In this document: piece by piece, positions 2,356 to 64,000 of the stretch
Layout of the letters: each line of letters opens with the position of its first letter
Numbering within the stretch: position 1 is the first letter of the stretch
Assembly: GCA_050084515.1 (NCBI GenBank)
Contig: CM114271.1
Location: 8,928,001 to 8,992,000, forward strand
Direction of reading: 5' to 3'
Origin: Blasia pusilla
Taxonomy: Eukaryota
Length of the DNA: 64,000 bases
The notes under the pieces: model-generated
Seen by the model: the letters and a program-made list of their open reading frames with translations, nothing else
The model's database searches: none
What the model was told of the DNA's origin: nothing
Made by a program: the position numbers and the translations under genes

Positions 2356-2466
2356 TTGAACTCCGGTTGAGAAGAAGTCTAGATAAGACAACACAGCAAT
2401 TAGTGTGCCAGCTCGGAGGCAGGCGGTTGGATGCTCGTGAGAGATCTTCTCAAGAGCTTGCAAAGA
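2356..2466 (-). CDS. UPL3: UPL3-like exon 2
   Basis: SLQALEKISHEHPTACLRAGTLIAVLSYLDFFSTGVQ, bounded by AG and GT, in phase. Confidence 0.9.
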
Positions 2467-5128: not shown

Positions 5129-5139
5129 ATCATAAATCT

Positions 5140-10890: not shown

Positions 10891-11663
10891 CTCGAACCAG
10901 CTTGAGAAGAAGCAAGCATGGGAAGAATGTAAAGGTAGGTCTTACCTTCAAGCATGTCCAAGAGACAAGTCGAGCCTATGCCATCAATGCTGCTCAAGAG
11001 ACTTTAGTTAGGACACGTTCAGAAGTAGATGAGGTAGAAATTTCAGGCAGTAGATGCCTTGGAGTAGATGCTTAGGGGGAGGTAGATTTGTAGGAAGGTA
11101 GGAACCCAGAATGCCAGAGAAGCCCAAGTGGGAAGAGGGCTCTCAGCTTCACTTATAAATACTCTGTTGGGTTTGCTTGAAGGCGAGCATATACATGCTG
11201 TTGGCTAGTAGACAATTGATCTCTTGAGCCAAGCTAACCAGCAGAGTTATGTGCTCCTAGATCTAGGAAGTGTGTAGTGTGCTTGAAGGGGGCTGAGACT
11301 AAGAAGGTCTCCCATGTACTCGATGATTTTATGATACACAGAAGGTAGCCCAGTGAAATGAGTTCACTCCATTGCCCTCAGAGATCTGAGTATGTGCATG
11401 ATTGAGTGATGAGTTGGGGGGCTTGATGAAGGGAGATTCTTGGAGCTGATTCAATTGATCATTCAAAAGTGTAGTGAGTGGACAAGAGGTTGTACCAGTA
11501 GAGGGGAGGCAAGCTTGGGTTCCAAGATTGTGCTCCACCAAGGTATGCTTGGAAAGCTTGTTGTTCTGCCCACCTAAGCTTGGCCTTTGACACCAATCAC
11601 TGATTATTTCTAGGGTGTGACAACCTGGACTTCCAAGTCTGGTAAGTGATAAGAGTTAGTGAG

Positions 11664-17955: not shown

Positions 17956-18079
17956 GAAGATGAGGTTTGATAACCGAATACGGCATGATCCAGTGAAGGA
18001 GGGGGACATGGTGCTGATGTATGATAGTCGACCCCAAAAGTTTCCAGGAAAGCTGCACATTTGACTGCTTGGGCCTTAT

Positions 18080-18425
18080 CAGGTGAAGCGCATCCAAGGG
18101 AGTGATGAGAGCAGGTGGAGCTGAAGAGCATCCAGGGGAGTGATGAGATCAGGTGAAGAGCATCCAGGGGAGTGATGAGAGCAGGTGGAGCTGAAGAGCA
18201 TCCAAGGGAGTGATGAGATCAGGTGAAGAGCATCCAGGGGAGTGATGAGAGCAGGTGGAGCTGAAGAGCATCCAGGGGAGTGATGAGATCAGGTGAAGAG
18301 CATCCAAGGAAGTGATGAGAGCAGGTGGAGCTGAAGAGCATCCAAGGGAGTGATGAGAGCAGGTGTGGAGTCAAGAGCATCCAGGGGAGTAATGAGAGAG
18401 TGTGGAGTCAAGAGCATCCAAGGAA
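18080..18425 (+). repeat. Second copy of the 38/32-bp minisatellite (family A 3' LTR)
   Basis: Same units as 10549-10890. Confidence 0.95.
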
Positions 18426-27928: not shown

Positions 27929-29190
27929 CTATTTACATATGGGACAAAGCCAATGTCCTTGAGGAACCAAGTCAAGAGGCGGCATCAAACACGACATAAG
28001 CCATCCTCGAGAACACCCATCATAAACTAGCATCGTGGCTGCGCCCTTGGCAGACCCACACAACATGCATCTCAAGCCTGTAGGAACAACTACCAAGCTT
28101 GGATCAATCCTCCCATCTATGTTTGGAAGATGATATGGCGCACAGTTACGCACATGAATTTTCCAAACGGTACCGTCACGACCCTCTAAAACAAGGACTC
28201 CTGAAGGTAGAATCTCTCGTACTCGTAGAATAGTGCATCCCGCCGTCACGTCCAATATCATCGATGCTGTCTGCTGTAGGTAGAGATAATTTCCGGGATG
28301 GAATCGTCGAATCCGTGCATCCTCCACGCGTAGTCGCGTACCTCAAGATATCGCGATGTTGAGCGATATCCAGGTTCTCAAACGCCATAGGCATGACTCT
28401 CCGAAAGAGCTCAACCCACTGAGAACATGCTCGCAGCCAAATGTCTGGATTGTCGAGGTCAAGTACGTCAACCACATCTTGTCAAATTGATGTCGGTAAC
28501 TCTGGCTCTCTCTCATAGAGCAAGAAATACGTTGAAAATGATGCCAAGGATGCATGTCGACTGAAGCGGTAATCCATCGCCAACCACGGCAACTATTGGT
28601 CCCAATCTCCCTAGTGTCCTGTCTGCAATCCATACTTGCGCAATCCTCTCTTCACCGTCTGCACAACTCTCTCTGGCAAACCATCTGCCTCCGGATGATC
28701 TCGAGAAGTCGTACGATGATCTATCAGTGCCTGATCACACAAGGCTTGAAAGTAACCCCTAAACTCAGTACCCTCGTGTGTCAACACCTCTACTAGTGCG
28801 CCAAAATGACTAAGCACTTTATCAAGAAATGCATAAGCCACTCCCTCACTCGATCTATCTGGAAACGCTACCAACTCAATCCACTTGGAGAAGTGCTCCA
28901 CCATGACCAACACGTATCGACTATGGTGTCCCGTCAATGGTAAAGGCCCTACAAAGTCTAAACTCTAGCGATACCCTAATCCCATGATCGATAAAGGATG
29001 CATGTGTGGTGTTGGAGCATTGAACGATGCCCGCACCCTACCACATACAATGCATCTGGCTACAAATTGCTGAACATCGGTCTACATACCATACCATCAA
29101 TACTGAATCTGAATCAAGCTAAATGTACGCTTGACTCCAAAATTCCCTAACTCCTCGTGAGCATGTCTCACAATTCGTGCTCGTTTTGAA
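27929..29190 (-). pseudogene. Integrase with C-terminal PHD finger (DNMT-gypsy copy 1)
   Basis: HAHEELGNFG..CIVC zinc finger; YVLVMVEHFSKWIE..GTEF..HPEADGLPER core; CMLCG..MLVYDGCSRGW..CL.PPL..VPQGHWLCPICK. Confidence 0.88.
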
Positions 29191-29789
29191 TGAGCTGGTG
29201 AGGACGTCAACCTATCCTTGAGCTCCTGCTCATCTCCCCAAAACCACTCCTGGTCCAACCTAGTCAACCAAGTCTCGACTCCTACTCTAGATCAAGGCTC
29301 GCTCCAGGTTGGAATACGTGTAGGGTCATTGGAAGATAGGAGTATCACTATCCAAATCAATCCGAATACCTGGACCCTTCAGCATACCCAAGTCATGCAT
29401 ACTATATGCAAAACAGTCCCTAAATCTCCGCAATAACTGCAACACTCATCTCCTCTATGCTCATGTTAACCTAGGACCAATCATCGGCTCCCAAGTCTCT
29501 CTCTTGACCTCTGGAGAAGAGGAGGGTGGTGATTGCTAACTAGCAACCTCTAGAGCAGCAACATGCGCTCCCAACTCAGGCACCAACTCTCTAGGCACTC
29601 CACTATGTCTTGCATCGGCGAGATGAACTCCCATCTCTCTATGCTCTCGTGACATATCCCATGAAGTCCATGGATACCTCTCCATCACCATCGCGCCCCC
29701 AACCAGTGTCTCACCCGTCCCGGTAGACGTTGCCCTACAAAGTGGACGTAATGTCATCGATGCCTCTCACAACCGTCTGTGCTCAGCCA

Positions 29790-30760
29790 AACCAAGACTG
29801 AACACCCAAGTAAGACAGTTCAGGTCCATGGCCTGACCCAATAGCTATGTGGGGGATGCCTTTGCCATCAGAGGCACCGCCGTTGTACATATAGAGAACC
29901 CCATAGCTCACTCTTGCTCATCAGCGTTGGTTTCCACGAGTGTACTTGCCAGCTCATTCCATATCATGCCTGGTCCTCCCTGACAAAAAGCATGAGATGA
30001 TGGGAAACTCACCAACGTAGGCAATGTTGCCCTTTGTTGGCCCACCCGATTGGCCACTGCCAACGGTGGTACATCATCATGAGTAACAACCTGAGATCGC
30101 CGCCCTATATCCAAGATCGCATCCACTATAAGTACCGATGGTCTCTGGACTCCAAAATAAGCCCATCTTAGTAACTCGGATGGTAAAAGGTCCGTCCACC
30201 ACAATCGTGGACGATGTGCGCGCGATCCAATACTCGCCGCATCCAACATCACCATCGGTCCTATCCACGACCGTACCTGATGTACACTCGCCATCACTTG
30301 GGCTCGAGTGTTACCTAACAATGGGATGTTCTCCAAAATGTAGGCTGGAGAACATTGGTGGGTAGTCTGCAAGTGACGAAGAACTCGCAACATCTCCCAA
30401 AACATGGCCGACCTCGGATCCTACAAACCAAGTCCCTGACCCACTGCAGAATAACCCTGACATGGCCACCATGCCACCGCCAAGGGTTTCCGACCAACCC
30501 TATCCAGATTTGGCGTCCCCAACAATGAAATGTTGGCCGGCAATACATGCTGATATCCCATGATTGCAAACACTGGCAATAATTGAGGATACTGCTGGAC
30601 TAGTCTTGACACATGATGTAAAGAGACTCTACGTGGAGTCTCATCCCTCTCAACATACAAGTACTTCTGTACTCGTACTCCGACCTGCGACATTGCAGCC
30701 AACACTGTACTAATCCCTCAAAAGAGATCTAGTATACATAAACCCTCCTCGGGATACTGC
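29790..30760 (-). pseudogene. C5-cytosine DNA methyltransferase domain within gypsy pol (copy 1)
   Basis: Motif I LDLF*GI, II YVERD, IV WPCQG, VI YILEN, VIII RAHRPRLWW, IX E*AMGF, X LLGQAMD, in canonical order. Confidence 0.9.
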
Positions 30761-39700: not shown

Positions 39701-40454
39701 AGTGGCACACCATTAGAGTAGTTAGGTTAGGAAGAGACATACATTTTCAGAACAAATAGGAAGGTAGAAGAGTTACGACCTATGAATTCCTAGGAATCAT
39801 AGGAAAAATTAAGAGAACCGTAGATTAAAGTAGTTACAAGATCTCAAGAGGTGTTTACTCTAAAGAAGCGCTTCATATCTTTGATATTGACGTCGTTTAA
39901 GATAATATTTAAAGACTATCAAAGGAGTTTCCAGCATCATTCTCTTACGACGTCCTTATGATGTAGGAATGATCTGAGCCAAAGAGTAATACCCTCACAT
40001 GCTTGTACACACTTTACAGCCTTTTTGTTCTTGATGGAATAGCATAAACCTCATTTCTTCATTATGATGTGGGGTGTATCTATCTAAGAGATCTTATTCG
40101 GTCTGCAGAGTGAGAAATGATTGGTAGAGCATCTTTCACTAGAAGAATAATCAATTGCAAGATGTAGGAAGTCTATTTGACAGAGAGTTACGTGCCAAGA
40201 TGGATTTAGTTCCGAGAGTAGGAAAAGCCATCTGGCGATTGAGATCTCTGTGAGGTTCTTTTGTTAAGGAAGCATCTGCCAGAGAGTTCTATACCACTTG
40301 AGAGAATAGAAGAAAGGAAATCTTGGTACTTATTAAGAGAAGAACAACCTGATGAATGTTTGAATCTGTTTTGTATAAACATAATCATCACCTTCACATA
40401 AACAACACAACTTAAAGCTCTCTTTTCGGATAATAGTGATCTTTTTTGATATTT

Positions 40455-40945
40455 GCTATAGGGTGTTGAATGGATGGTTGACCATGGGTGCACACGTTTA
40501 TGACCATGTGGAAAAAGGACTCAAACCCTTTTTTTTTTATGTGAGGTAAAAGCAAAAGATGTTGGCAGCTTGAAGATATGCTGGTTACTCTTATAAGAGG
40601 TGGTGAAGGAAAAAAAAAAAGGCCACCTCCTGAAATTTATGCGTTCATAGCGGAAAATGCACAACTAGGATGAATTTCTATTAGGGAAGTGTTATGGGGT
40701 GGAGAAGTTCAACTAGAAAGGGAAAGATCGGATGCTTTCCATTGGTAATAGTCCGTGACTCACTATACGAAATCTTGCATCAAGGAGAATAAATGATCAG
40801 AGCATGTTGATCTACTACAACATTGCAAGGATAGCAAATGCTTGAAACAAGCGATGGAGTCCCAATAAGAGCTTCATGTGTGGTGGAGGAAGCATGCAAT
40901 TGAGGGGAAATATAAAGAGTTGTGTTGTGAAACCTGGTAAATAGA
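40455..40945 (+). pseudogene. Fragment of the Mutator-like transposase
   Basis: Clear nucleotide similarity to 58760-59250 (LNGWLTMGAHVYDHVEKG...DAFHW). Confidence 0.85.
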
Positions 40946-41215: not shown

Positions 41216-44200
41216 TGTCGCGCCCCTACTCTCCTTGAACGTCAATCTTTAGTGTTGCGGAAGCGTGCGTTCAGTAGGTCACGAACTCATCGCCGATCTG
41301 CACCCAAACACGCACTCTCGTTAGTTGGGTTTGGCCAACCGGCGTTCCAACCCACCGAGTCCTCAACTCGGCGTCTCATCATGCTCAACGTTCCTTAGTT
41401 CCTCGCTTCCAACACATGGCAAGTCCTTCAAGACTTGGAACAGACTTCCTGGTTAGTCCAGGGATCAAACAAGATTTTGCGCGCCTAGCGATCCCAACTG
41501 TTCAACGGTCCTCGGGTGAGTTCCGAACCGAGACCCAAGTAATTGAGTCGCGGCGTGAAATCCAAGAGGGATGTCTAAAATCGCTTCAATGGACTTGGTG
41601 CAGGTTTTCCAACCTAACGCCCAACTCGCGTTCCGTTCCATGCCCTTGAGCCGCCCCGCAACGCCCAAAGTGGGGTTTGGGTTCCAAGCACTCTCGGAGA
41701 CCTTGCCCCTTACTAGTACTTCTGGGGTTCTCCAATAACCCCTCCCCTTTGGGAAAAGAGGGTCGGGCCCTTCATTGTGGCCCTCAACCCGACTCCACTT
41801 ACAGTCGTTTTCGGGTCGTATCTCGGCTGGTGCTTATGCGTTTGCATCGATCTTTGGTGCGTTTGGACCGGCTCTCCACAAGCTTTCCAACGCACCCTTA
41901 TTTGCTCCAAACGCATCTTGGCGCTAAAAGTTATGGCCATAAATACAGTCAGAAACTCTCAAACGCTAGTGGTGTTCCAAATTCGGATCTTCCCTTTGGC
42001 AACCCACTTCCTAGACTCGACTTCTTTCAAGTCTCATTCCGCGTTTGGTCCAGGTTTCTCAGTCACGACCATACCACCTGAAACACGACTCCTCGTTCGC
42101 GTCTCGTCTCTTGTCTCCTCTTTGAGACAACTCCAACGCGCAAACCATCTTAGCGTGAGCCCGCTAATGTTCTGATGTTCCGCTTGGCACTTGTTTGGTC
42201 ATGAGGGTCGCGACACTCACCCCTCTTTTAGAGATTGATGCCCTCATCAACGCAAACCTTTATTATGTCAAGTCTCCTGGGCAGCCTACCCCTTGACATT
42301 GAATTGCGTTCTGGTGGCTAACCCGCAATTCCTCTTAGTCTCTAGTTGTCGCTTTGCCCCACTTAGAATTACTAGCCTCTCCTCTTCGATAAGCCTGGAC
42401 TAGTTCCAAGGAACTAACCTTTCAAATAAGCTTACTAAGTGTGCAACCTTAGACTCTTTCGACTCATTACTGTAAACATCACACCTGTTTACCTGGTCCA
42501 CAAATCGTACTACTATTGGGTGGCTCTCGTATTCGACTTAGGCGCGTTACTAAGTTTATTTATGTGGCCACAAGTAAGATCATCCCAAGCCCCAAGACAG
42601 ACTTCATCTGCCCCGCCGACGCTAGGGCGAGCCTGAGTGTAATCCAACACAAGGTCCTGTTCTAGGTGCTTATCCACATACGAGCTCTCACCTCAAATAC
42701 TCCTTGTCTGTCCTCTTGTCGTACATTCTAAGCCTATGATGAACGACTCATAACCATGCACTACCACATACAAATTGCAATCAACACTGGTATCGAATCT
42801 CCAAATCCATACACTCCTTTATTGCAACACTAGCATATTCTAGTTACAACGGCCTTCGGCCCAAGATTCCACTGGTTACAAGTCATGTCTCTAGCTTCTC
42901 CTCGTACTAACGTATGTGCTTCGCTTGTGTTCGCTTGAAGTCACGCAACAACTCTTGCGCGTGTTCCAAATCCGCCTCCGCAATCCAAGTCGCCTCCTTC
43001 ATATGGTAGCCCTTCCATTTTACCAAGTATTCATACTTGTTGGCCCGACGTCTCGAACGTAAGATGGTCTCCACCTCAAACTCCGGCTCTTCATTTACGT
43101 TGACCGGGTGCGGTCTCACCACCTGTCTCGCTCAAAACGTCCATTATCTTGAAGATATTTCTTCAACAATGACACATGAAAGGTCGGGTAAATCTTGAAC
43201 TCGTCCGGCAGCCTCAACGTATACACATCCTCAAACGGGTTTGCCACAATCACATACGGTCCAACATACTTGGCAGACAGCTTCGCAGACAACTTTTTGG
43301 GAAGAGTGAGATTCTTTACACTCAACCACACTTGTTCTCCAACTTGGAATCGTACTTGGCGCCGACTCTTGTTCGCATGCTTAACGTACCTCATTTGAGC
43401 CTTTGCAAGACTTCGCCTTGCGCGCTCTTCTTGTTCTCGCATCTCTACCAGCAAACCTTCTGCCGTCACTTGTCGTGTTCATGGCAATGTAGTACCCTTC
43501 GAAAGGGCTAGATCAAGAGGCCCTTCTGGCTCTCGTCCATTTTCCAAGAGAAACGGAGATTCTCCAGTTGCAGAATGCTTGGTCGAGTTGTAGCAGTATT
43601 CCGCCATGCTCAGCCAGCTGACCCAATCGCGTTGATCAGCATTGACATAATTCCTTAAGTACTGATTCACGATAGAGTTGACCTTTTCAGTCTGTCCATC
43701 CGTCTGTAGGTGGAAAGCCGTACTGAAACTCAGCTTGGTCTTAAACCTTATGAACAAGTGCTTCCAGAAAGCACTGGTAAACTTTGGATCCCGATATGAA
43801 ACAATGCTCCTCGGCAAACCATGAGCACGCCACCAGCTATCGAGGAATAGTTGCGCCGTTGTATACGCCGTTGCGGAATCCACCGTCGGCACGAATCTCG
43901 CGAACTTGCTAAACCGATCAACAATCACAAGTATAGCGTTGTATCCCTCAGATTCCGGAAGACTCGTGATGAAATCCATACTCACACTTTGCAAGGGTCC
44001 TTCTGGGATCGGCAAGGGATGCAGCAAGCCCTGTTTCTTATCATAAGAGACTCTATTCGCTTGGCAAGTCACACAGGTCTTCACATATTGAGCAACATCC
44101 TCTTTCATGTTGGGCCAAAAGAACCGTTTCGACAGAACAGCTAGCGTAGATTTCTCTCCTTTATGTCTTGCCAAGGGCCCGTCGTGACATTCCGCCAACA

Positions 44201-47200
44201 CCTTGGTTCGCATCCTGCCTTGCCCTACATAGATCCTACTCTGTTTGAACCTTAGTAAACCATGCCTCAAATTTATGTTGGCCACCTTCTCACCCTACTT
44301 CAACTTCCTCAGGTATTCCCCTCCTTGAGCATCCTTCATATATCCTTCACGAATCCTTCTTTCCAGATCTGTTTCCTTAGGGAACATTGCTCTCAAGACC
44401 TATGTCGTCGATGGCATGTGTTCCTCCTTGCGACTTAACGCATCTGGAATCACATTATCTTTACCTGACTTGTGGATCAACTCTACATCCATCGCCAAGG
44501 TATCATGCCACCGCAGATTGTTTGGTGTCACTTTCGATCCTGGGTCTCAAAATACTTGAGTGATATATTATCGGTGAATACTCGAGTCCTGTGGAGCCCT
44601 AGATAATGCCGCCACTTCCTCAAGCAATGTACCACCGCGAACAACTCTTTCTCGTGAGTAGGCCATCTCCTTTCAGTATCGCTAAGCTTCTTGCTCTCAT
44701 ATGCCACCGGTCTCCCTTCTCGCACCAACATTCCTGCAACCGCAAAATCACTAGCATCGGTATGCACTTCGAACGGTTTGTCAAACTCCGGCAGCTTCAA
44801 CACTGGTTCCTGCGATAGAATCTGCTTTACTCGGTTGAATGCCTCATTAACTTCTTGGGTCCAAGTCGTGTTGGCAAACTTTGCTGTCCAATCCGTGAGA
44901 GGTCTCACAATTCCCGAAAAGTTTTTCACATATGTACGATAAAATTGCACCGCACCTATGAACCTCCTCATCCCCTTTAGAGTGGATGGGGGTTCCCACT
45001 CGAAAATCGCTTTCACCTTCTCCCTGTCTGGACTGACGCCATCTGCACTGACCACGTGACCCAAGAATTTGATCTTTCTCAAACCAAACTCGCTCTTCTC
45101 TACATTCGCATACAGCTAATTTGCCCTTAGCTTAGCCAAGACCGCTCTCACATGTCGAACGTGCTCCTCTAGTGACTTCGAATAGATAATTATATCATCG
45201 ATATAGATGATAACATACTCATCCATTTCCTTGTGAAAAATGGAGTTCATCAATGTGGTGAATGTTGGAGGCGCGTTACATAGACCGAAAGGCATCACTA
45301 CAAACTCAAAGGACCCGTATCACGTCCTGCACGCAATCTTCTCCACATCTGCTTTGGCAATCCGAATCTGGTAATATCCTGACTTTAAGTCAATCCTACT
45401 GAAATATCTTGCGCCTGCCAGCCTATCAAAGAGATCATCTATCCTTGGAAGAGGATAATTGTTCGAATCGTCACTTTTTGTTAGGCACGGTAATCAACAC
45501 ACTGACCTCATCTTTCCATCCTTCTTCTTTACAAAGAGAACAGGTGCTCCATAAGGTGACTTGCTAGTCCTAATGTAACCCTTTTCCAAGAGCTCACTTA
45601 ACTGCTTTTTCAACTCAAGAAGTTCCTCCTGATTCAACCTATATTGTGCTTTTGAAGGCGGTTGGGAACCGGGTATGATCTCTATCTTATGATCTACGGC
45701 TCTATGCGGCGGCAATTCGGTCGGAAGCTCGTTTGTCAAGACATCCTCAAACTCCTTGACCACTTCTGGAGTGGTTGGGACTACCCTCAAAGCGGTGTCC
45801 GATCTCTGCGTATATCGCTTGTAGCCTCCTCCACTTGTCTCATCAAGCAGAGAAATCCATCCTCCAACTCAGTCATGCTCCTCCTTGTGATCGAGTTCAC
45901 TAACTCCATTTTCGCTGGAACCTCACGGACCAACCGCACCTGTAAGCGTTTGCCTTTTAGCAAGACGCTCAACCTCAATGGTCGGCATCTTAACTCCACC
46001 TCATACGCATCTAGGAATGTATTCCCCAAAACTCCGTCAATGCCATCCATTTCGCACACAGTGAAATTCTCCTTCAACTTGAATACTCCGCATCCTACTG
46101 TCAAACCCAAGACCAAATCAGAAGTCCGATGAGACTTGCCTCCTGCAAATCCCACTCGAATGGGCTCGTCCGCCTTAGAGGTAGACAACCCCAATTCTTT
46201 CACGATTCTCGGGCTTAGGAAGGAGTGCGAAGCACCTGTATCCATGAGCAACAACACATCGCGATCAACAATCTTGGATCTTAGGTACACCAAATTGTGC
46301 GTCCTCTTGGTGACTTGAAGGGACGTCTCAAGATCGCCCGCCAACAGATGCTTAGCAGAAAACGCAATCATACTCCCATTACTAACCTTCGGTTTTGAAC
46401 ACCCTTTCGACAGGTGCCCCGGTTCGCCACAGTTGTAGCATACGACCTTGCCGTACCCTGACTTTGAGTGTTGTCCTCCTTTCGGTTTCGCATGAAGTTC
46501 CACTCATTTTGCTGCCGGGGCAAACGACTCTCCTGGTTTGTGCTGGCCCCCACTCCAGCCTCTTTTGAACGCCTCCTTATTTTTTGACTTCTTCGAAAAA
46601 ACTTTTGGCTCAAAGGGTTTATGGGTTTGGACCTCATTGTCCCCAATCCGCTCCGCTAGCTTCAGAAGGTCCGCGCACGTCTCTCGTAACGTCGGCATTC
46701 GGTAAAGGGCCTTTTCAGCACTCGGCTTGAGTCCACTAATGAAGATAGCCTTCTTCGCATGTTCATCCATCTTTGGACTAGAAGTCGGTTTCGCACTAAA
46801 CTCCCTCACATACGCACTTAAGGAACCACTCTGCCGCATCCGCACGTATTCCACCGTGTCACGCAACCCTTGGTACTCCGGAGTGAACCGATCCCCAATC
46901 AACTCTTTGAACTCCTCCCAAATCAGAGGTGACTTGCCGCCCAGATATTCCTCTCGTTGAGCTGTCCACCATTGTAGAGTATGATCCTTCACGAATGTAA
47001 CGGCTACCGTCACCTTGTCCTGCTCAGCAGCCCTCTGCGCCTCGAAGTACAGTTCCAGTTCCGTAAGGAAATCCTTCACTTTCCGCGAGCGCCCCACTCC
47101 CGTGAATGGCGTGGGCAGGTTCGTCTTGCAGAGCTTTTTGCCCGCACAAGGGTTTTGAGTGGCCTCTAACTCTGCAATCCGCTTGCTTTGCTGGGACATC

Positions 47201-48584
47201 TGCTCCACCAACACCTTCAACAAGTCCAACGTCTGGCTCAACTCCGTCCTTTCCCTTGAGTTTGGGCCCACTGGCCCCGCGGAAGGATTCGCCTCCGGAA
47301 CGTCCTCATGACTGGCGTTCAGCTCTTCGGGAGTCTCCGTCTCCTCTATAGCTTCACGGTCCGGCATTGGTTCCTCTCTTGGTTCACGTCGCTTGATTTG
47401 GCGCTTCTTGGGTTGTTCTCCCTCGATCGCCATTTCCAAGCCAACTCACTCAGGTCTCCTCCTCGTTTCTTGCGTCCCTCCTCGAGCTTTTGAGTCTAGC
47501 CGCTACCTTTGAGTTTCCCCAAGCGTCCGGCTGATCCCACGACCCCAAGTTCTCGCTCACCAAGGATTAGCTCTGATACCACTTGTCGCGCCTCTACTCT
47601 CCTTGAACGTCAATCTTTAGTGTTGCGGAAGAGTGCGTTCAGTAGGTCACGAACTCATCGCCGACATGCACCCAAACACGCACTCTCGTTAGTCGGGTTT
47701 GGCCAACCGGCGTTCCAACCCACCGAGTCCTCAACTCGGCGTCTCATCATGCTCAACCTTCCTTAGTTCCTCGCTTCCAACACATGGCAAGTCCTTCAAG
47801 ACTTGGAACAGACTTCTTGGTTAGTCCAGGGATCTGAAAGAGTACTTGCGCGCCTAGCGATCCCAACTGTTCAACGGTCCTCGGGTGAGTTCCGAACCGA
47901 GACCCAAGTAATTGAGTCGCGGCGTGAAATCCAAGAGGGATGTCTAAAATCGCCTCAATGGACTTGGTGCAGGTTTTCCAACCTAACGCCCAAACTCGCG
48001 TTCCGTTCCATGCCCTTGAGCCGCCCCGCGGCGCCCAAAGTGGGGTTTGGGTTCCAAGCACTCTCGGAGACCTTGCCCCTTACTAGTACTTCTGGGGTTC
48101 TCCAATAACCCTTCCCTTTTGGGAAAAGAGGGTCGGGCCCTTCATTGTGGCCCTCAACCCGACTCCACTTACAGTCGTTTTCGGGTCGTATCTCGGCTGG
48201 TGCTTATGTGTTTGCATCGATCTTTGTGCGTTTGGACCGGCTCTCCACAATCTTTCCAACGCACCCTTATTTGCTCCAAACGCACCTCGGCGCTAAAAGT
48301 TATGGCCATAAATACAGTCAGAAACTCTCAAACGCTAGTGGCGTTCCAAATTCGGATCTTCCCTTTGGCAACCCACTTCCTAGACTCGACTTCTTTCAAG
48401 TCTCATTCCGCATTTGGTCCACGTTTCTCAATCGCGACCATACCACCTGAAACGCGACTCCTCGTTCGCGTCTCGTCTCTTGTCTCCTCTTTGAGACAAC
48501 TCCAACGCGCAAACCATCTTAGCGTGAGCCCGCTAATGTTCTGATGTTCCGCTTGGCACTTGTTTGGTCATGAGGGTCGTGACA
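41216..48584 (-). mobile_element. Structurally complete chromovirus (Ty3/gypsy with chromodomain), ORFs disrupted
   Basis: LTRs 41216-42215 and 47584-48584 (TG...CA); TSD CCGCA; PBS TGGTATCAGAGC at 47570-47581; PPT at 42216-42229. Confidence 0.96.
42907..47439 (-). pseudogene. Chromovirus gag-pol: gag, CCHC, PR, RT, RNase H, INT, chromodomain
   Basis: CYNCGEPGHLSKGC; LMDTGASHSF; YIDD; TDASDF; SMDFIT..VDRFSK; GPY; EFEVETIL..YLVKWKGY..EATW; several stops and frameshifts. Confidence 0.93.
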
Positions 48585-48699
48585 CCGCACTTCCCCTGCA
48601 CTTTCCAAGTCGGAGGACGAACAAACTTTGAATCCCTTTGCGGATTTAGGGGACGAGGAACCTATCAGGCCAACAAGGCCTAAACCTATACCTCCCCCT

Positions 48700-50870: not shown

Positions 50871-53079
50871 ATGTCGTACGCATACACATTGCTTCACAAT
50901 ATACATCCCTTTCATCGAACATACACATAAATACGCATAATCCCATGCTAACTCATGGCATCCAAACAACGAGTCAAGAAGTACAAAAATATCTCCAATG
51001 AGAGGCTTGGGTTACACGCACACGGCAAGGAGGACCATAGCTCAGCCGCCTCATGCCAAGAGGTTCAACAAAGAGAGAATGAGCTCTCAAGCTCTCTCTC
51101 TTGGAGGTAATATCCCCTTCCCTCTCCCAAGCTCTCTCCTCGATAACCTATGCTCGTAGGTCACCTCCTTGGCTCTTGACATGCTGTAGCGGATCAAGGG
51201 CCACTTCCCAAAGTGGGAACTTAATTATACTCCAAATGGAAACTCACCCAAAATAGTAAGTTACTATATATGACTCCAAATGAGCCAAAACAAAGGAGAA
51301 ACCTGCTCTCTCAGGTTACCCGTGGCCTGAGTAAGTCATCCTCGGCTTCCTGAGACTGTCCTTTAGTATCTCTGAAGGCGCTCTACTAGATCTCGCCAAT
51401 CTATCCTAAGAGATGTGACAACTATCGTACGCATATAATCGCTACACAACATACCTCACTGTCATCGAACATACACATAAACACGCACGATCCCATTCTA
51501 GCTCATGGCATCCAAAAAATGAGACGAGAAGAACCAAAATATCTCCAATCGCCCCCTTAGCCAGTGGTTAGGTCCGTCTAACTCTAGATAGCAATCTATC
51601 CCTACCTACCATGACATACATCTCTCGGACGCTAAGGGCAAAAAGATCGGGTGCTCATGTGGCCCCATCGTTAGTCTCCTTCTTGTCATCCATGTCATAG
51701 ACACAACTCGGAATCTAGAACTACCTACTCTATGTACATCTGGGACACATCCATCATCCATGAGGAACCCTGGTGAGAGGTGGCGTCAGACATGCCATAT
51801 ACTATCCTCTCGAACATTCATCACAGACTAGCATAGTGGCTGCACCATGGGCGGAACCACGCAACATACATTACAAGCTTGCAAGAACTACTGCTAAGCT
51901 CGGATCAATTGTACCATCAATGTTAGGAAGGTGACATGGCGCACAGTTATGCACATGGTCCTTCCAAACCATACCATCGCGTCCCTCCAATAAAAGAATA
52001 CAAGATGGCAAAACCTCACGCACTCTCAAGATGATGCGCCCTGCAGTCACATCCAACGTCGTGGACGCATCTGCAAAAAGTAGACATAGTCTCCCTACTG
52101 AAACCTCTAGATAGTAGGTCGATAACCACCTCCCCAAATAGTCGCATACCTCAACGTATCCCAATGCTGCGCAATCTCCAAGTTCTCAAATGCCATGGGC
52201 ATCACTCTCCGAAATAACTCAACCCTTTGAGAACATGCTCGCATCCATACATCATGGTCATCAAGGTTCAATACCTTACCAACATCTTGATCAATGGCGA
52301 GAGGTAAATATGGCTCACGGCCATAAAGTAGCAAGTACGGTGAGAAAGATGCTAAGGACAACTCCCTGCTGAATTTGTATCCCATTGCCAACCACAGCAA
52401 CTGGAGGTCCCAATCTCCTAGGTGACCTCTCTGCAAGCCATACTTGCGTAATGCTCTCTTCACCGTCTGTACAACCCTCTCAGCTAGTCCATCCGCCTCA
52501 GGATGATCTCGCAAAGTGGTGCGGTGGTCGATCAACGCCTGATCACACAAGGCGTGAAACTCCTCGTGAAACTCAGTACCCTGGTCTGTCAACATCTCAA
52601 CTGGAGCACTGTAATGACTCAGCACTCGATCGAGGAAGGCATACGCTACTCCCTCACTCGCTTTGTCAAGCAGTACAACCAACTCTATCCACTTCGAGAA
52701 GTGCTCGACCATCACCAACACATAACGACTATGGCGCTTCGTCAAAGGTAAACGTCATGCAAAATCCAAACTCCATCTATAACCTAAACCCATGATCAGA
52801 AGTGGATGAAACTATGGCGTTAGAGCATTGAACAATGCCCGGACCCAATCACAAACCATACCCCTAGCAACAAGCTGTTGAACGTCAGTCTAAATGCATC
52901 ACCACGAATAGTGTATCTAGAGCAACATGTACGACTGCTTCACTCCAAAATGACCCAACTCCTCATGGGCATGATGCACCAAACGTGCGATGTGTGAAGG
53001 ATGAGGCACTACACATACTTTACCATCCTCACATACTTGCAACACATGTGTTTCCTCCCACCGGAACCGTCACGCTCGC

Positions 53080-55063: not shown

Positions 55064-57997
55064 CTCGTTGTAGGATCCGATCCCACTCTCTAGCACCCAC
55101 TGTGCTTGCGACGCTGCCAGTACGTAGGTACTCCAAGACTACTCCATCTTTATGAATATCTCGGCCACTTATCATCTCCTTTCTGGCCTCTGGATCCAAG
55201 GACTCTCCACCAAACCTCGCCATCGAAGTCTCAGCAATCTGGCTCTCCATAGCCAACAAGCCCAAATAGGCTGACGTGTGCCATCTTGGCACCACCTCCT
55301 CGTCACTCTCACCATGCCATCGAGCTCCAATTGCATCTCGCTGACTCGGGCATGGGTTACAGCTCAAACCATCTGCATCTGGGTTGAGCATCCTAGGTCT
55401 ATGCACTATCTAGAATTCATACTCTTGCAACAAAAGAGCTCACCTCGCAAGCTTCCCTGTAAGCTTATCAGACTCCATCAACCACTTAAGTGGCTGATGA
55501 TCACTAATGAGTGTAAAGGGGTCGCCGGATAGATAACACCTGAAATGTGCGACAACCCACACTAGAGCCAAACACTCACCCTCATATGAGCTATACTTTT
55601 CCTGTGCAGCGTTGTTCAAGCGACTAGCGTAAGCCACCACGAACTCTTTACCATCATCGCCATGTAGGGTGAACACCGCTCCAAGCCCCAACATGCTCAA
55701 ATCTGTATGCAATTGGAAAGGATGTCCCTTGATTGGTCTCCTCAATATGGGCACGAACGTCAATGTGTCCTTGAGGAGCTAAAATGCTCTCTCTTGCTCG
55801 TCCCCCCAGTGGCACTCTTGATCCATCTTGGTCAGCAAGGTTAGCGGCTTCGAAATCAAACTGAAACCCTTGACGTACCGTCGATAGAAGTTCGCCAATC
55901 CCATGAATGCACAAACTCGACTCACATCTGTAGGACGTGGAATGCCTGACATAGCCTCTGCTTTCGTCTACTGCACACCAAGGCCACCTGGGTACATTGT
56001 ATGACCCACGTATTCAATCTGATCGTAGAAGAACTTGCACTTGCCTAGGTGTAGCTTTAGCCCATGTAACTGCAATCGTTGAAACGGGGGCTGGTATTCT
56101 GGCAGGAGAGAGGAAGAGAGGAGAGGAAGAGAGGAGAGTCTCTCTTCAAGAAAAAGGGCCAAATCCGCCTCCTCTCTTCAAAACTTTTTGACATATTTGA
56201 AATTTTTGTTTGCTTTCAAATTCATGAAATCTTTAGAAGAGAGTAGGTAGTGGTCCACATTCGGGCCTAAAGAAACCGCCTTTTTCCAAGGGGCAAAAAA
56301 CAAGTAGACATCATAACACCACTACAAACATTTCTCCATCACTCTCCATGTGAGCCTAAGTTTCTTCACATTGCCTGTCTCAGTCTACAGTAAGATGTGC
56401 CCAGGGTTATTTTTGTTGGAGGACCACCCGGATGCGCATCGGTATGATGCCAACCTCTCTTTTTCCAGGGATTATTGCCTCCATCATGGCCTCCCCATAA
56501 TTGCCCCATAATGAATGGTGTCTGCTCAAGACCAACTTTATGAAATGTGAACACACAAGACGATAATTGAACCAAAAGATTGTTAGCTATCTGGAGTAAA
56601 GAGGAACTGATGTCCCTTCATTCAGATCCTAAATCTGAGAAACCGAGAAGCTCCACCCCTCCCAACCCGTCGGAATTTTACAGGTTGCAACTTTTGCAAC
56701 CCGTCGGAATTAGATGGCTTGCACCCCTTGCAAGAAAGCTCACCACAACAAAGGAAAGATTTTGAGAAGTGATTCCATTCCACCCTGCACCCACAAGAAT
56801 CCAACAGTTTGGGAATCCCAAATGGCAATTCGACAGGTAGTAGGAATCCAACACGTCTTAGAGAAAAAAAGAAGCCTACGACTAGTTTGACGATACTAGG
56901 GGAACGAGCCAAAAGTGAAGAAGCCCGCCACAATGCCTCAGAAGTTGGTCTCACACGGAAAGAGTCTAATCACTCAAGCAACCAACTTGTCAGAATCCGA
57001 CAGCTTGCCTGGAAATGGTTAAAAAGTTGCAGTGGTCAAAAAGTGAAAAGTTGCAACCCGTCGGAATCAGACGGGTTGCAAAATAAAAATTATGAGTAGC
57101 TAGACGAACACAATCGACAAGTCCAAAAAAAACATTCAGCAAATTTTTGCAAACACCATTATCCTTTGAAAATCTCTTATCTTTTATTACATCCGAATGA
57201 AGCTCAGAAATGTACATTTGATATAGTCTATGATTTCTTCAACCTCGTCATCTACAAATTTACTCCTAATTCTCCTAGGTTCCTATACAAAAGGAATGTC
57301 ATGGGATACAAGTGGCTCCTCTAGCCGCTTGTAGACGGGGATCGAAAATGTTGGCAAATTCGAGAGCCTTGCCCCCTAGGTACACCATAACGGTCCCATG
57401 TAACCTGATTTGAGTCCCACCGCCTTCCTTGGCAGTATATCTTGTACGCTCTGCAAGGTGACACCCATCCACTATCAATATCTGCTCCGTCCTTGGAAAC
57501 ACCATCACGAAAATCCGACAGGTAGTAGGAATCCAACACGTCTTAGAGAAGAGAAGAAGCCTACGCCTTGTTTGACGATACTAGGGGAAGGAGCCAAAGT
57601 GAAGAAGCCCACCAAACAGAATACCTCTAAAATTGGACCAACAGGGAAAGAGTCCGATCACTCATGTAGCCAACCTGTCGGAATCCGAAAGGTTGCATGG
57701 AAGTGGTTCAAAAGGTGCAGTGGTCAAAAAGTGAAAAGTTGCAACCCGTGGGAATCCGACATGTTGCAAAATAAACTGTCGAAGTACATAGACGATCACA
57801 TTCAACAAGACCAAAAAAGATATTCAGCAAACTTTTACAAACACCATCATCGTTCGAAAAAATCTTGTCCTTTATTACATCCGAAGGAAGCTCGGAAATT
57901 TACATTTGATCTATTCTATGAATTCTTCTGCCTCATCATCAAATAAATCCCTACTCCAAAACGCTGCAGTCAATCTGGGTCCTTGAGGTCTTTGAAC

Positions 57998-58321
57998 TCA
58001 CTCGTTATCATCCGAGAGCTCTTTCACAATTATTGTCGGCCTTGCCCTCCCAATTTTTGGAATCGTGGGAAGTGACGATGGTGTCACTACCAGTGGTGGG
58101 TCTGGAACCGGAGCTCTCGGCTTCGGAGGAGAGTTGTACGCCCCAACTAGCATGTAGTAATCTTCCTTTGCCTCTTTGCAAAGGTCAAACAGTTCCTGCC
58201 TTCCCTCGAGGCAAAGAATGTTCCTGCCACTATGGCAGGCCCCTCTAATACTTGCCCCTGAAAGGCCCACTAAGTTGAACACCAAGTCACCCGGCCTTGA
58301 GCACAGCTTGATGAGTGTCAC
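57998..58321 (-). pseudogene. C-terminal SAM-binding half of a beta-class N4/N6 DNA methyltransferase-like domain
   Basis: LIKLCSRPGDLVFNLVGLSGASIRGACHSGRNILCLEGRQELFDLCKE follows the pattern LI..S.PGD.VLDPF.GSGT...A...GR..IG.E. Confidence 0.6.
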
Positions 58322-61300
58322 ATCAAGGAGGATGTGGCGAAGAAAGTGGCCGAGGTCTACAGAAACTCTTCGGGTTCAAAGCCCGGAGTGATCAAGCTAA
58401 CAACAACATCACAAATTTGTGAACAATTGCTTGGAATCCTTGGACAGGGCGAGATCACGGCTACTGAGGAGAAACAACTATGGGAAAATGTCGCATTTCT
58501 CGCTGATCCTCAATGCTTCCGGAATTTTTTGCGTCAAATACGGGTACGGGATGGAAAGACGGCCGAAATGGATGCCATTTCCCGAATCAAGGCTAACTCC
58601 AGATTTCCAATCATTCAGAGATGGCAATTCATGGGCCAGGGAGGCGAAGGATCCAAGGCCTTTGTCTTCAAAATGTCAACGACAGGTCCGTCGAGTGGCC
58701 TCGATCTTATAGAACGAATGAGGGAAGGGGAAGAGCTTTAAGGGAGCTGGATAAGCTTTGATATTTGCTACAGAGTGCTGAATGGATGGTTGACAATGGG
58801 TGCTCATATTTATGACCATGTGGAGAAGGGACTCAAAACTTTATTTGTCTATGAAGTAAAAGCAAAAGACATTGGCAGTTTGAAGATGTGTTGGTTACTC
58901 GTATTGGAGGTGGTGAAGGAAAAAAAAAGGCCACCTCCGAAAATTTATGGGTTCATGGCGGACAATGCACAACGTGGGTGGATTGCTATCAGGGAAGTGT
59001 TATGGGGTGGAGAGGTTCAACCGGAGAGGGAAGGGTTGGATGCTTTCCATTGGCAACAGTCTATGACCCGGTACAACCAATCTTGCATCAAGGAGAATAA
59101 GAGGACAGAGCATGTCACTCTCCTCCAATGATGCAAGGACATCAAAACCTTTAAACAGGCCATGGAATGCCAAGAAGAACTTCATGGGTGGTGGAGGAAA
59201 CATGCGATTGAGGGGTACAAAGAGTTATGCTTTTGGCTGAGTTGGTGGACTGTACGAATGAGACAATGGGGAAACTTCATGCGGGAGGTGAGTTCACTAA
59301 TTTGTCTCATCAAGCTCATGCTGAAAATTGTTTGAAGAGTTGTAGCTTAAGTTGAGAAGCGTGGGCAGTATAGGGATCTCAAAACAAAGAAACCAAGCAA
59401 CCCGTCGGATGCGACGGGTTGCATCAAGAAGGTTTGGGTTACCTGTCGGAGCGCGACATCATGCACGAGGAATGTTTGTGCAACCCATCGGAACCCGACA
59501 GGTTGCATGAGTGTGCAACCTGTCGAATCCCGATGGCTTGCAAGTTGCATGTATACAAGGCCTGCAAATAGTTGGACTTGGGTGTGTTGCAAGCCGCAAG
59601 GCTGCGAGTTTACTCGATCTGCAACCCGTCGCATTCGACAAGTTGCATTTTTTTGACTTATGGGATTCCGACTAGTTGCGTCTGTATGTGACTCTCGCAT
59701 TCAGACAGGTTGCTGCTGTCACAAAGTCGCATCCAGAAAAGTTGCATCAGTTCAAGTTAACTGGAACTTGTCGAATTCCAATAGTTGCAAAGCTTCCTAT
59801 GTGGACACTTCTTGCAAGCCAACGGAATCCGACAGGTTGCACAAGGATTTTCGAGATCTGACCGGCCTGCTTCTCACAACCCATTCGATTTCGATGGATT
59901 GCAGTAGCAGGTTTTTGGGTGCTAGGTTACTAGGACATTCCAAGGATGTCTCCGACTTGCAACCCGTTTCAAGTTGGAGGCTCGAAAATCCATGTGCAAT
60001 TCATTGGATTCCGATGACTTGCACTTGGATCTTCCAGCTTGGAGTGGCCAAAGTTACTTGCAACGCGCGTGAAATCTAACGGGTTGCACTAGATGGTTCC
60101 TAGGTGTTGCAACACGTCGTAAACCAACGGGTTACACAGCCATTCATGGAATGCCTCCGACTTGCAACCCGTCTAGTTTCGACCGCTTTTTTCTTTGCTC
60201 ATAGCGCTATTTTGGTTCCCTTCTCACATTTCCATCGTTGCAGGGATTGAACATTCATGAAAATGCCCTTTGCCACAACACAAGTGGAGTAGAAAGTGTT
60301 CATTTCTCCTAGAGGTCGTGACAAGCATGCCAAAGAATTTCACTTGTGGAGGCATCCCGACAAAACCAGGCAAGAGCAATGCTACAATCTGCAGCATCCC
60401 ATATATTCCTCACAAAAGGCATACCAAAAGGAAGGGGGCCTTTGATCTACGAGCTCTATGTCAAGGCCACTGTGAGATCTGGTGATGAGAAACTCTATGT
60501 AAAAGCCTTCAATCGGTGCATAGCAGGAACTCCCCTCGAGCAAGACATACACATTGGTGGGGATATTTTTGGGCGCGTTTCAAGACGTCCCATACATATG
60601 GTGGTAGAGCAGTCCGAGCAAGACTTGTGGAGACCAGATAACTATCTTGACTTCAGGCAGGTGAAAAGGCAACATCAAGGAACAAACCCGGTGATTGATT
60701 TGGATGAGGAAATCACGCCGCCCAAGTATTCGGAGACCCTAGATTGCTCTCAAATCCGTGATGCACTATCTTCTCCAAAATCAATGAATGTTTTATTTCA
60801 AAAGCCCTCCGTTGCTGGAAGTTCGCAACATCCGGTCGCTGGGGTGGTTCAACAATATGGGATTTCGGTCATGGAGGTGGATTGCAACCTGAAACGGTCG
60901 CATATATCTCGGAGCAACCTTGGATGTGCACCCACTTGCAGGGCAGGATCCGATGGCATTAGGAGAGCATGCGGCACTTTCCTTAATAAGAACTATACAA
61001 GGATTGGACGACCACTGCTTGGATTTTAGGGACTCAAAACCTTTGATCGTTTCTCCAGGATCCGGGATCAATTGAAATACTTCTTCTGCCCAAATTAATC
61101 TTGCACTTTCCGGAAGTCTTATCCGGCTGCCATTGGAGCTCTAGGGAATACCCCCATGATTTGGCCCATGGCCGTTGGTACGAATTGCATTTAACACGAA
61201 GTGGGAAATCTTACAAGTGCCGGTTTGAGACTCGTAGACGAAGGAAGTTCATAGCATGTTCGCATTACAGAGACGTTCACATTTTTTATTCAACCCAAGA

Positions 61301-61746
61301 TTGATGTCGACATGTACCTGGAGAAGGTGGATGATCTCAATCCACTATTTCTGTTTGAGTCTAGAAATGGGGTGAAGAGAAACAGAATGTGTAGGCCAAC
61401 GGTGGAGAGAGCAAAGCGAATTGCATTAGCTCGGGAGGCAAAAATGGAAATCATCGCCACGAAAGATGTTTAGAGTGGCAATGGAATAGGAAGGATGTAT
61501 TGGGTCAGGAACCACACTGTAAATTCAAGTGTCACAAGGGTGTATGTGGTGCACATCTCTTGCTTTCCCACATGTTCATGTGATGACTTTGTCCAAAGAG
61601 AGACAAGTGGGAAAAGGTATTTCCCTTGTAAGCACATGTACCATGTGTCGCCTGTAGCTTTAAGAGAGTCGGAGGTAGGAGCAGGAATCCACCAACCAAT
61701 TCTGTCCCTCAAAGAAGTGCCAAGTATTCTAAACAAACCACTTTGA
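58322..61746 (+). pseudogene. MULE-type DDE transposase with C-terminal SWIM finger; intron 59288-60243
   Basis: WISFDICY, FMADNA, DAFHWQQS, NTSGVESVH; SWIM CSCDDF...PCKH; GTGAGT...TTGCAG intron keeps the frame. Confidence 0.82.
59395..60190. repeat. Array of roughly 15-17 degenerate 29-bp palindromes in the transposase intron
   Basis: Consensus TGCAACCCGTCGGAnTCCGACGGGTTGCA, separated by short variable spacers. Confidence 0.9.
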
Positions 61747-62303
61747 GGATGCAAAATGAGGTTTTAGATTGTAGTTTCATTTTCTAGAACCTACACTTTG
61801 AGTTTGAATTCTATTAAGCCCAAGGCAAATGATAGATTTTTTCCAGACCTTGGATGGAAAAAGTGATTGGTTCCACACTTATGATTCCACTGATTTTTCA
61901 GTTTTCTAAATTTTGTGCAAATTGCAACTCGTCGGACTTAGAGAGGTTGCCAAAATGTGGAAGAGGAAAATAAAACTGTGGGAGTGCTTAAGAAGTGAGA
62001 AGAAAAGTGCAAAATAAATCACACAAAAAGTTTCCTCTCTTCAACCCAACGGAAACTCTCTTACAAAAAAGTATCTCTTTGGGTTGAAGGTAGTTTCCTC
62101 TCTCCTCTCTTCCTCTCCTCTTACCACACCTCTCGTTGAAACACCTCCTCTAGATGTCGCTCATGCTCCTCAACCGTGGCGCTAAAGACTACAATGTCAT
62201 AAATATAATATCTAGCAAAATCCAAACATGCCAAGATCTGATCCATGACTCTTTCAAACTTAGCAAGGGCATTCTTTAACCCAAATGGTAAGAACCACCT
62301 CAC

Positions 62304-62995: not shown

Positions 62996-63518
62996 TGCAG
63001 ACTGTAGTATTGCTCTTGTCTGGTCTTGTTGGCATGCCTCCACAAGTGAAATTCTTTGGCATGCTTGTGATGACCTCCAAGAGGAATGAACACTTTCTGC
63101 TCCACTTGTGTTGGAGCAGAGCGCATTTTCATGAATGTTGAATCCCTGCAACAACCCCAATGTGAGAAGGGAACAAAAATAACTCAGAAGTAAAAGAAAT
63201 AAGCTACCTGTCAGAACCAGACGAGTTGCAAGGGCGAGGCATCCCATGAACGACTCTGCGACCTGTGAGTTCCTGACGTGTTGCAACACCCAGGAACCAC
63301 CTAGTGCAACCCATCAGATTTTGAGGGATTGCAAGTAAATTTGGCAATGCGACTTGCAACCCGTCCTTTTCGACTGGTTGAACACTCAAGAAACCTGTCA
63401 ACCTCTCGGATTCCGATGGGTTGCAAGTAAATTTGGCCATGCGACTTGCAACCCGTCGGTTTCCGACTGGTTGCACACTCAGGCAACCCATCGATTAGCG
63501 ACGGGTTGAACACTTCTC
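62996..63518 (-). mobile_element. Inverted fragment of the Mutator-like element (intron palindromes plus exon with the catalytic E)
   Basis: GFNIHENALCSNTSGAESVHSSWRS matches 60244-60390; about seven palindromes. Confidence 0.85.
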
Positions 63519-64000
63519 AAGGTGCGGTAAGGGGAGAGGAAGAGAGGAAGAGAGGAGAAAGGAGAGAGGAAACTACCTTTAACCGAAAGAGATACTTTTT
63601 TTTAAGAGAGTTTTCTGCAATTTGAAGAGAGTTTCCGTTGGGTTGAAGAGAGGAAAATTGTTGTGTGAATTTTTTTGCACTTTTCTGCTCAATTCTTAAG
63701 CACTTCCACAAAAGTCTTTTTCCTCTTCCACATTTTGGCAACCCCTCTGAGTCCGACGAGTTGCAAATTGCACAAAATTTAGAAAACTGAAAAATCAGTG
63801 GAATCATAAGTGTGGAACCAATCACTTTTTCCATCCAAGGTCTGGAAAAAATCTATCATTTTCCCTAGGCTGAATAGAGTTCAAGATCAAAGTGAAGGTT
63901 TTGGAAAAATGAAATTACAATCTAAAACCTTATTTTGCATCCTCAAAGTGGTTTGTTTAGAATATTTCACACTTCTTTGAGGGACAAATTGGTTGGTGGA
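63519..64000 (-). mobile_element. Right end of a further Mutator-like copy, continuing off the window
   Basis: Reverse complement of ~61690-62132. Confidence 0.88.

Follow-up and report, generated by a model that had tools for sequence, protein, structure and literature searches.

The question raised by this locus is whether a DNA transposon in the nuclear genome of a liverwort carries, beside its transposase, a gene of bacterial DNA-methyltransferase type. The window, by which we mean the whole stretch of 64,000 nucleotides that was analyzed (Blasia pusilla, GenBank assembly GCA_050084515.1, contig CM114271.1, positions 8,928,001 to 8,992,000 of the forward strand), is plant nuclear DNA packed with retrotransposons. 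An earlier note on this DNA had proposed a Mutator-like element (MULE) bounded by target-site duplications (TSDs) and containing, opposite to the transposase, a frame with the spacing of the C-terminal motifs of beta-class amino-methyltransferases. Genomic reads were taken from approximately 1% of one 139-Gb whole-genome run of the same species and accepted at a likeness of 85% or more to the window, and two stranded-looking RNA runs were used for transcription. All coordinates below are those of the window.

Structure of the Mutator-like element

The features of the element and its borders are the following.

56076-56085, no strand: left TSD, TCGTTGAAAC, the identical 10-mer present on both sides of the element
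56086-62132, plus: Mutator-like element of 6,047 bp, an internal-deletion copy, recognized by its TSD, inverted ends and empty-site reads
56086-56140, plus: left terminal inverted repeat, GA-rich and imperfect, aligning with the reverse complement of 62078-62132
56661-57768, no strand: subterminal region with six copies of a 29-bp palindrome and a tandem duplication
57998-58315, minus: 3' remnant of the putative accessory gene, an open frame of 105 codons and a stop
58160-58318, minus: core resembling motifs X, I and II of PF01555 methyltransferases, residues 20-72
58316-58318, no strand: internal deletion junction, with genomic reads diverging on both sides
58319-59335, plus: middle part of the transposase, MULE-type core, with in-frame stops at 58739-58741 and 59129-59131
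59400-60250, no strand: variable palindrome-rich stretch in the transposase region, five palindrome units
60250-61700, plus: downstream part of the transposase, with a SWIM-like zinc finger at 61543-61641
62078-62132, minus: right terminal inverted repeat, GA-rich, pairing with the left end over about 55 bp with gaps
62133-62142, no strand: right TSD, TCGTTGAAAC, identical over 10 bp to the left copy

Target-site duplications of MULEs measure about 8-11 bp, and the borders proposed for this element hold: the 10-bp duplication is exact, the GA-rich ends are inverted, and 931 genomic reads carry uninterrupted retroelement sequence at 62133, which is the empty site. At the loose end before 62133 the reads agree with the left flank (56050-56075), and a single minus-strand Ty3/gypsy pol gene (reverse transcriptase and RNase H) makes up both flanks. 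A host gene broken by insertions is ruled out by the TSD boundaries together with the read depth. The units of the tandem duplication (56827-57252 and 57512-57940) are 84% alike; most genomic copies have a single unit, since the read joints skip approximately 693-697 bp.

The transposase is decayed in this copy. Its core gave no match in Pfam, where PF10551 was sought for a MULE-type DDE transposase; in the ESM Atlas 23 of 30 matches of the transposase fell in a MULE set and further ones in MULE/ZSWIM sets, the top score of 0.94 resting on only 157 shared features. The SWIM profile PF04434 matched the downstream part with an E of 0.022, below the cut-off. The methyltransferase-like frame lies, as had been proposed, inside this element and antiparallel to its transposase.

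Other pieces of related elements occur in the window. The end of a second MULE copy, inverted, occupies 63521-64000 and extends past the window; 63520-64000 and 61688-62131 are complementary to 91%, and the end at 63521 is a close match to the right end of the element and also aligns with its left repeat. An inverted copy of 60047-60393 is found at 62996-63345. At 40445-40921 there is an isolated fragment of the transposase core, its DNA 82% identical to 58757-59226, with no methyltransferase-like part adjoining.

The 29-bp palindrome is CpG-rich (idealized, TGCAACCCGTCGGAATCCGACGGGTTGCA) and has 27 units in the window at 8 mismatches or fewer, versus 0 in five shuffles. Its units cluster in the subterminal and internal non-coding parts of the element and in other element fragments, the clusters outside the element lying at 7045-7872, 9944-9972, 19188-19508 and 63202-63765. 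The palindrome is a general motif of the family studied here or of related element families.

The remainder of the window contains the 5' exons of a UPL3/TRIP12-type HECT ubiquitin ligase gene (3-3850, minus), whose protein is 88% identical to that of Marchantia polymorpha, the best match, and 70% identical to that of Calypogeia. Judged by this one gene, the window comes from a liverwort that is close to M. polymorpha but distinct from it. An apparent C-terminus of a PIF1/Helitron-type helicase lies at 4766-5149 (minus), with a weak UvrD_C_2 match at an E of 0.0036, below the cut-off. A fairly young Ty3/gypsy element at 41216-48585 (minus) has LTRs of 1 kb with 96.9% identity, and its gag, protease, reverse transcriptase and integrase frames are long and open; a further LTR pair (10422-11467 and 17955-18992) is 95.6% identical.

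The methyltransferase-like frame

The minus strand has a stop-to-stop open reading frame (ORF) of 125 codons between 58375 and 57998. The peptide quoted in the earlier note is present there as described and corresponds to residues 21-57. The segment LIKLCSRPGDLVFNLVGLSGASIRGACHSGRNILCLE (58315 down to 58160, minus) can be aligned to the C-terminal motifs X-I-II of PF01555 (N6_N4), and downstream of this methyltransferase-like part a 50-residue proline-rich tail closes the ORF. AlphaFold2, run on the ORF without an alignment, gave a mean pLDDT of 42.

The ORF had zero matches in Pfam at an E of 10 or less, the curated threshold of PF01555 (26.7 bits) being unmet, and zero matches in NCBIfam. 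Searches of other collections returned weak matches to one kind of enzyme. With phmmer against the PDB two distinct sequences were matched, both M.RsrI (E 0.64-0.68), with residues 20-58 of the ORF aligned to residues 234-272 of 319. A tblastn search of phages matched 65 records (E 0.06-1); 34 of the 40 listed are named methylase or methyltransferase, five are unannotated and one is called 'unknown', this last being an SfV gene whose RefSeq name is methyltransferase. The same search of plasmids matched 195 records (E 0.2-4), with 39 of the 40 listed named methyltransferase and one unannotated. All four phage genes checked exceed the PF01555 cut-off (83-148 bits) and are matched by the ORF at their C-terminal end; in all nine enzymes examined the match covers the last 50-60 residues. 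The profiles of PHROGs and PADLOC, which were built independently, agree in giving methyltransferase families in all three PHROG matches (best E 0.0045) and Type II methyltransferase models in five of six PADLOC matches (best E 0.0068). In the ESM Atlas, 27 of the 30 clusters nearest to residues 1-80 belong to PF01555, with scores of 0.92-0.94. Alignment by hhalign to nine methyltransferases gave a probability of 95.6%, and a local HMM made from the same nine gave the ORF 34.9 bits, compared with 5.8 bits for the next-best of 2,106 six-frame ORFs and 5.5 bits for the best of 2,000 shuffles; the scores of both methods are inflated because the nine references had been selected as resembling the ORF. 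Of two control ORFs taken from the window (136 and 125 aa), neither had a phage tblastn match or a PADLOC match, and their PHROG matches were unrelated noise only, with a best E of 0.046.

These results bear on whether the resemblance could have arisen by chance, with an antisense or decayed frame falling on a short, strongly conserved motif. In favor of such an accident are the unbiased database E-values, all of them weak (0.0045 to 4), and the way the frame was chosen, which was by the earlier note from approximately 92,000 six-frame residues. We nevertheless consider it extremely improbable, since all matches fall in one family and at the same position, the controls have no such matches, the local HMM score stands far above that of the best shuffle, and two features of the family reads described below, a majority Asp at residue 34 and an upstream E-K-x-P, fit the enzyme family in a manner unexpected by chance. 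Judged by these comparisons, the likeness of the ORF to the C-terminal X-I-II region of beta-class amino-methyltransferases exceeds chance, although no single unbiased search passes a curated cut-off. The match to X-I-II spacing that had been claimed is thereby recovered in the PDB, phage and plasmid, PHROG, PADLOC, ESM Atlas and hhalign comparisons, and the closest matches of the frame are bacterial and phage beta-class enzymes.

The alignment keeps L-I, S-x-P-G-D-L-V, S-G, A, G-R and the Glu of motif II. Six of the nine columns that are invariant in the nine methyltransferases are kept in this copy (I, S, G, A, R, E). The motif X helix (L-I-x-x-x-S-x-P-G-D-x-V) and the motif II region (G-R-x-x-I/L-x-x-E) are both present with the spacing of the family and at the C-terminal end, and this order of motifs X and II at the C-terminal end is the permuted beta order. 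Motif I reads N-L-V-G-L-S-G versus D-P-F-x-G-x-G and fails the consensus, the Phe and the first Gly being missing; the degenerate FxGxG remarked on before is real (V-G-L-S-G). At 58276 a T>C difference in 94% of reads gives Asp, invariant in the enzymes, versus the Asn34 of this copy, which would raise the invariant columns to seven of nine and makes the majority motif I D-L-V-G-L-S-G. Among the read variants listed none restores the Phe or the first Gly.

The catalytic motif IV of beta-class amino-methyltransferases, (D/N/S)PP(Y/F/W), is located in the N-terminal half of the protein. Motif IV and the catalytic half are absent from this copy, and with the full-length methyltransferase HMM no other six-frame ORF of the window scored above 5.8 bits. 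A second part of the gene had been sought at 9605-9913, to be joined to the fragment; this proposal fell, as that region lies 46 kb outside the element, shares only the 29-bp palindrome motif with it and has no methyltransferase signal. The frame at 9428-9835 (minus) was rejected as the other half of the gene, with no methyltransferase signal in Pfam, the methyltransferase HMM, tblastn, PHROGs, NCBIfam or PADLOC. It is a 136-aa open frame of no recognizable family, with PHROG matches at noise level and no phage tblastn match.

Searches for closer relatives gave little. An exhaustive phmmer search of 1.84 billion representatives (E of 0.001 or less) found nothing other than two repeat proteins, which were rejected as relatives because their 22 and 8 matched stretches were taken as a pile-up of score, and word-index searches against longer proteins gave no match for either the accessory ORF or the transposase core. 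In a metagenome scan for intact copies, two loci among the matches listed are spurious, as only the proline-rich tail (APVPDPPLVV) was matched, on GC-rich contigs. A search of sequencing runs returned small shares (0.06) in runs of two other organisms and in an air metagenome, which carry no meaning yet.

What is visible of the frame appears to derive from motifs X, I and II, the C-terminal SAM-binding subdomain, of a beta-class N6/N4 DNA amino-methyltransferase of PF01555. Derivation of the accessory gene from a methyltransferase is very probable.

Copy number, internal deletion and transcription of the family

Genomic depth is approximately 1,200 over the methyltransferase-like segment versus 1,300-1,400 over the transposase core, and 1,000-1,275 over 60250-61700. 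Most of these reads are 85-95% alike to the window copy. The element family is old and of very high copy number; from a depth of about 1,300 in the fraction of the run used, its copies would be in the thousands. Because the depth of the segment is about equal to that of the transposase, the fragment is not a one-off Pack-MULE capture, a prospect that the earlier note had itself held up against its proposal. The stretch at about 59400-60250 has a depth of approximately 135-200, versus about 1,300 on both sides, and RNA reads are absent from it; at roughly one-tenth of the surrounding depth it represents an insertion specific to this copy or else an intron that is highly variable.

Where the accessory frame and the transposase meet, genomic reads depart from the window in both directions: 791 behind 58315 and 1,037 before 58319, with a consensus agreement of 0.95 and 0.94. 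Since almost all reads diverge cleanly at 58315/58319, the window copy has an internal deletion there, which the earlier note had overlooked, and the frame is the 3' remnant of a gene only. The deletion site is the meeting point of two head-to-head frames, and homology to methyltransferases begins at motif X, right at the junction. Both genes lost their 5' parts in this deletion, the minus-strand accessory gene as well as the plus-strand transposase. The accessory fragment is therefore dead in this copy, and the opening 19-20 residues of its 125-aa ORF arose as an artefact at the junction. The dead window copy gives no information on activity.

In the majority sequence beyond the junction both divergent ORFs are open across the ten codons shown. 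The transposase continues upstream as ..THPVTDAIQR and the accessory frame as ..REKSPALMQT, followed by LIKLCSRPGD. The E-K of REKSPALMQT was aligned to the E-K of HPxEKP, which stands ahead of motif X in the nine enzymes. The 30-nt loose-end sequences were not found elsewhere in the window at 8 mismatches or fewer.

In other copies no read spans both the methyltransferase-like fragment and the transposase, as nearly every read departs from the window at the junction. The linkage of the two genes in those copies rests on their equal depth and on the one TSD-bounded copy that they share. This indirect linkage, with reads diverging both ways, is what would be seen if the fragment were a segment of another repeat nested in a MULE copy, the boundary having been erased by the deletion, and had never been a gene of the MULE family. 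Against such a chimera, the depth is nearly equal on either side (about 1,200 versus 1,300), the same 29-bp palindromes border the fragment on its left and recur in the right-hand part of the element, a single pair of homologous ends, its TSD intact, encloses both parts, and the head-to-head ORFs both extend into the missing segment as fits one divergent gene pair. We hold a chimera to be very improbable and regard the methyltransferase-like gene as probably an integral part of the MULE family.

The RNA runs support a divergent pair. First mates map to the plus strand over 57250-58500 and to the minus strand over 58750-61700. Over the accessory remnant the first mate is on the plus strand at 20.3 versus 1.38 and 13 versus 0, which is minus-strand RNA; over 60250-61700 it is mostly on the minus strand, which is plus-strand RNA. 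The strand call assumes a standard stranded library and is calibrated by the flanking minus-strand gypsy pol gene, whose first mates likewise map to plus. Coverage by RNA is low; 23 RNA reads (run X19) extend into the missing segment. Most RNA reads are less than 95% alike to the window and therefore derived from other copies. The accessory gene and the transposase are transcribed divergently, each in sense.

Differences among copies were used to look at the condition of the frame. Six differences between copy sub-populations, among the variants listed, comprise two sites of intermediate frequency (58208 and 58253) and four sites at which the consensuses of the DNA and RNA loose ends differ; five are synonymous changes and the sixth is Glu/Asp. 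This synonymous excess is suggestive of constraint, on six sites only. Among the 11 differences of the window copy from the majority that were listed, five are non-synonymous. The second transposase stop (59129-59131) is private to this copy, since a sense codon is found there in 93% of reads.

These data also bear on a passive origin of the frame. MULEs often capture gene fragments, and an ancestor of the family could have picked up, in the manner of a Pack-MULE, only the C-terminal piece of a host or foreign methyltransferase, which would be functionless in its descendants. Consistent with such cargo are the frequency of gene-fragment capture in MULEs, the visibility of only about the last 55 residues of the domain, the degenerate motif I, the sub-threshold Pfam result and the five non-synonymous changes just mentioned. 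On the other side, the frame extends at least ten codons further in most copies with residues typical of the family, its 105 codons are intact although the transposase of the same copy gained stops, its transcripts are sense, sub-populations of copies differ mostly at synonymous sites, and no close parent gene was found among 1.84 billion representatives, a library whose related protein collection includes Marchantia polymorpha. Pack-MULEs are non-autonomous and bear a piece of some host gene whose parental copy sits elsewhere; the family here has its own transposase, and protein searches found no parental gene. We regard passive cargo as unlikely, the most serious of the alternatives considered.

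Interpretation and known systems

The reading that we prefer takes the frame as the 3' end of an accessory gene of an abundant liverwort MULE family, truncated here by the deletion, with the intact gene specifying a methyltransferase fold; as a joint reading it is likely, well short of certain. The element, the frame and its likeness to bacterial-type enzymes are kept from what was first proposed for this locus, and the partner at 9605-9913 and the claim of novelty are given up. Full-length copies would encode a longer protein of methyltransferase fold, kept with the transposase and transcribed, and we think such a full-length fold in intact copies somewhat probable. The protein may act on the element's own DNA, most plausibly on the repeated 29-bp CpG-rich palindromes, as suggested by analogy with the systems below. 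It would be either a DNA-modifying enzyme or a catalytically weakened factor binding DNA and SAM, the latter option being raised because motif I is degenerate (D-L-V-G-L-S-G versus D-P-F-x-G-S-G); catalytic activity of the full-length protein seems doubtful. Its role could be the regulation of the element or a shield from host silencing.

MuDR of maize is a two-gene autonomous Mutator element in which mudrA and mudrB are convergent and mudrB has no known similarity to methyltransferases; two genes are present in both, divergent here and convergent in MuDR. VANC, of the VANDAL21 (Hi) MULE, is an anti-silencing protein, not a methyltransferase; its targets are short repeated motifs in the element that encodes it, and its action leads to loss of 5mC. 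Compared by description, the Blasia family would resemble VANDAL21 as a MULE with an extra gene altering the methylation of its own motifs.

The earlier statement that no such combination had been described does not stand. In the red-algal Plavaka, Mutator, Zisupton and Fanzor-encoding elements, according to the Bostrychia moritziana genome preprint (10.1101/2025.02.11.637652), an accessory gene, PAG2, combines a PF01555 DNA methylase with a SET domain, is accompanied by PAG1 and PAG3 (ParB-like plus 2OG oxygenase), and inverted-repeat arrays are proposed as binding sites of an accessory protein. The Blasia element is similar in being a cut-and-paste DNA transposon of a very abundant family, with a PF01555-like gene beside the transposase and inverted-repeat arrays, and it differs in its liverwort host and its size (about 6 kb in this deleted copy versus 17-19 kb in red algae). 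A SET domain is absent downstream of the methyltransferase-like part, and in this copy, which has lost the 5' part of the gene, no PAG2-type SET domain, PAG1 or PAG3 was seen. PF01555-type accessory genes in DNA transposons are thus already described in red algae, and the liverwort MULE is a variant. A land-plant DNA transposon with a PF01555-type accessory gene was not found in the literature searched, which is not proof of absence.

Retrotransposons provide further precedents. In one report (PMC5890265), Dam-like adenine methyltransferase domains are cited for DIRS elements, again contrary to the claim of novelty, and Dnmt3 or Dnmt1-type domains for retrotransposons of Symbiodinium and Klebsormidium. 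The likeness to these is that of a mobile element with a DNA methyltransferase domain, for which a self-regulating or anti-host role has been proposed; the difference is that theirs, of other methyltransferase classes, lies within the Pol polyprotein of a retrotransposon, whereas here a separate divergent gene belongs to a DNA transposon.

The window itself has a retrotransposon-like unit at 27929-30717 (minus), with a related piece at 51649-52973, that includes a C-5 cytosine DNA methyltransferase-like domain. This domain (29911-30717, one in-frame stop read through as X) matches PF00145 with 27.7 bits (cut-off 22, E 2.2e-6) and gives weak PDB matches to M.HaeIII, M.HhaI and DNMT2; downstream on the same strand are an integrase core (28611-28964) and a PHD finger (27929-28342). 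The unit resembles the DNMT-bearing retrotransposons of Symbiodinium and Klebsormidium. With the MULE fragment and this unit, the window therefore has two different mobile elements with DNA methyltransferase-like parts.

Bacterial-type amino-methyltransferases are also present in eukaryotic nuclear genomes as host genes. MpDN4MT1a/b of Marchantia polymorpha (10.1101/2021.02.12.428880) and N4CMT of bdelloids (PMC8885841) are beta-class enzymes of this kind, with a TSPPY catalytic motif and shown 4mC activity. The Blasia frame is like them in being beta-class, bacterial-type and nuclear, Marchantia belonging to the same plant group, and unlike them in being transposon-borne, with only the C-terminal subdomain visible and a degenerate motif I. 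The empty phmmer result speaks against close kinship with DN4MT1 only if the DN4MT1 proteins are in the library of 1.84 billion. A bolder version, which we think quite unlikely, would have an active enzyme writing 4mC or 6mA on the element's own palindromes, so timing transposition or blocking 5mC silencing, and belonging to a lineage linked, as donor or recipient, to the DN4MT1 of Marchantia sperm; if true, it would give an entry and spread route for bacterial-type DNA modification in a plant lineage.

Transposons with their own DNA-modifying enzymes are rare and bear on the escape from, or exploitation of, host epigenetic control. Liverworts are a plant group in which a role of a bacterial-type 4mC methyltransferase has been shown (in Marchantia sperm), and both the origin of such enzymes and any self-marking of transposons therefore become directly testable through a MULE that is high-copy and transcribed, has a related domain and belongs to a relative of Marchantia.
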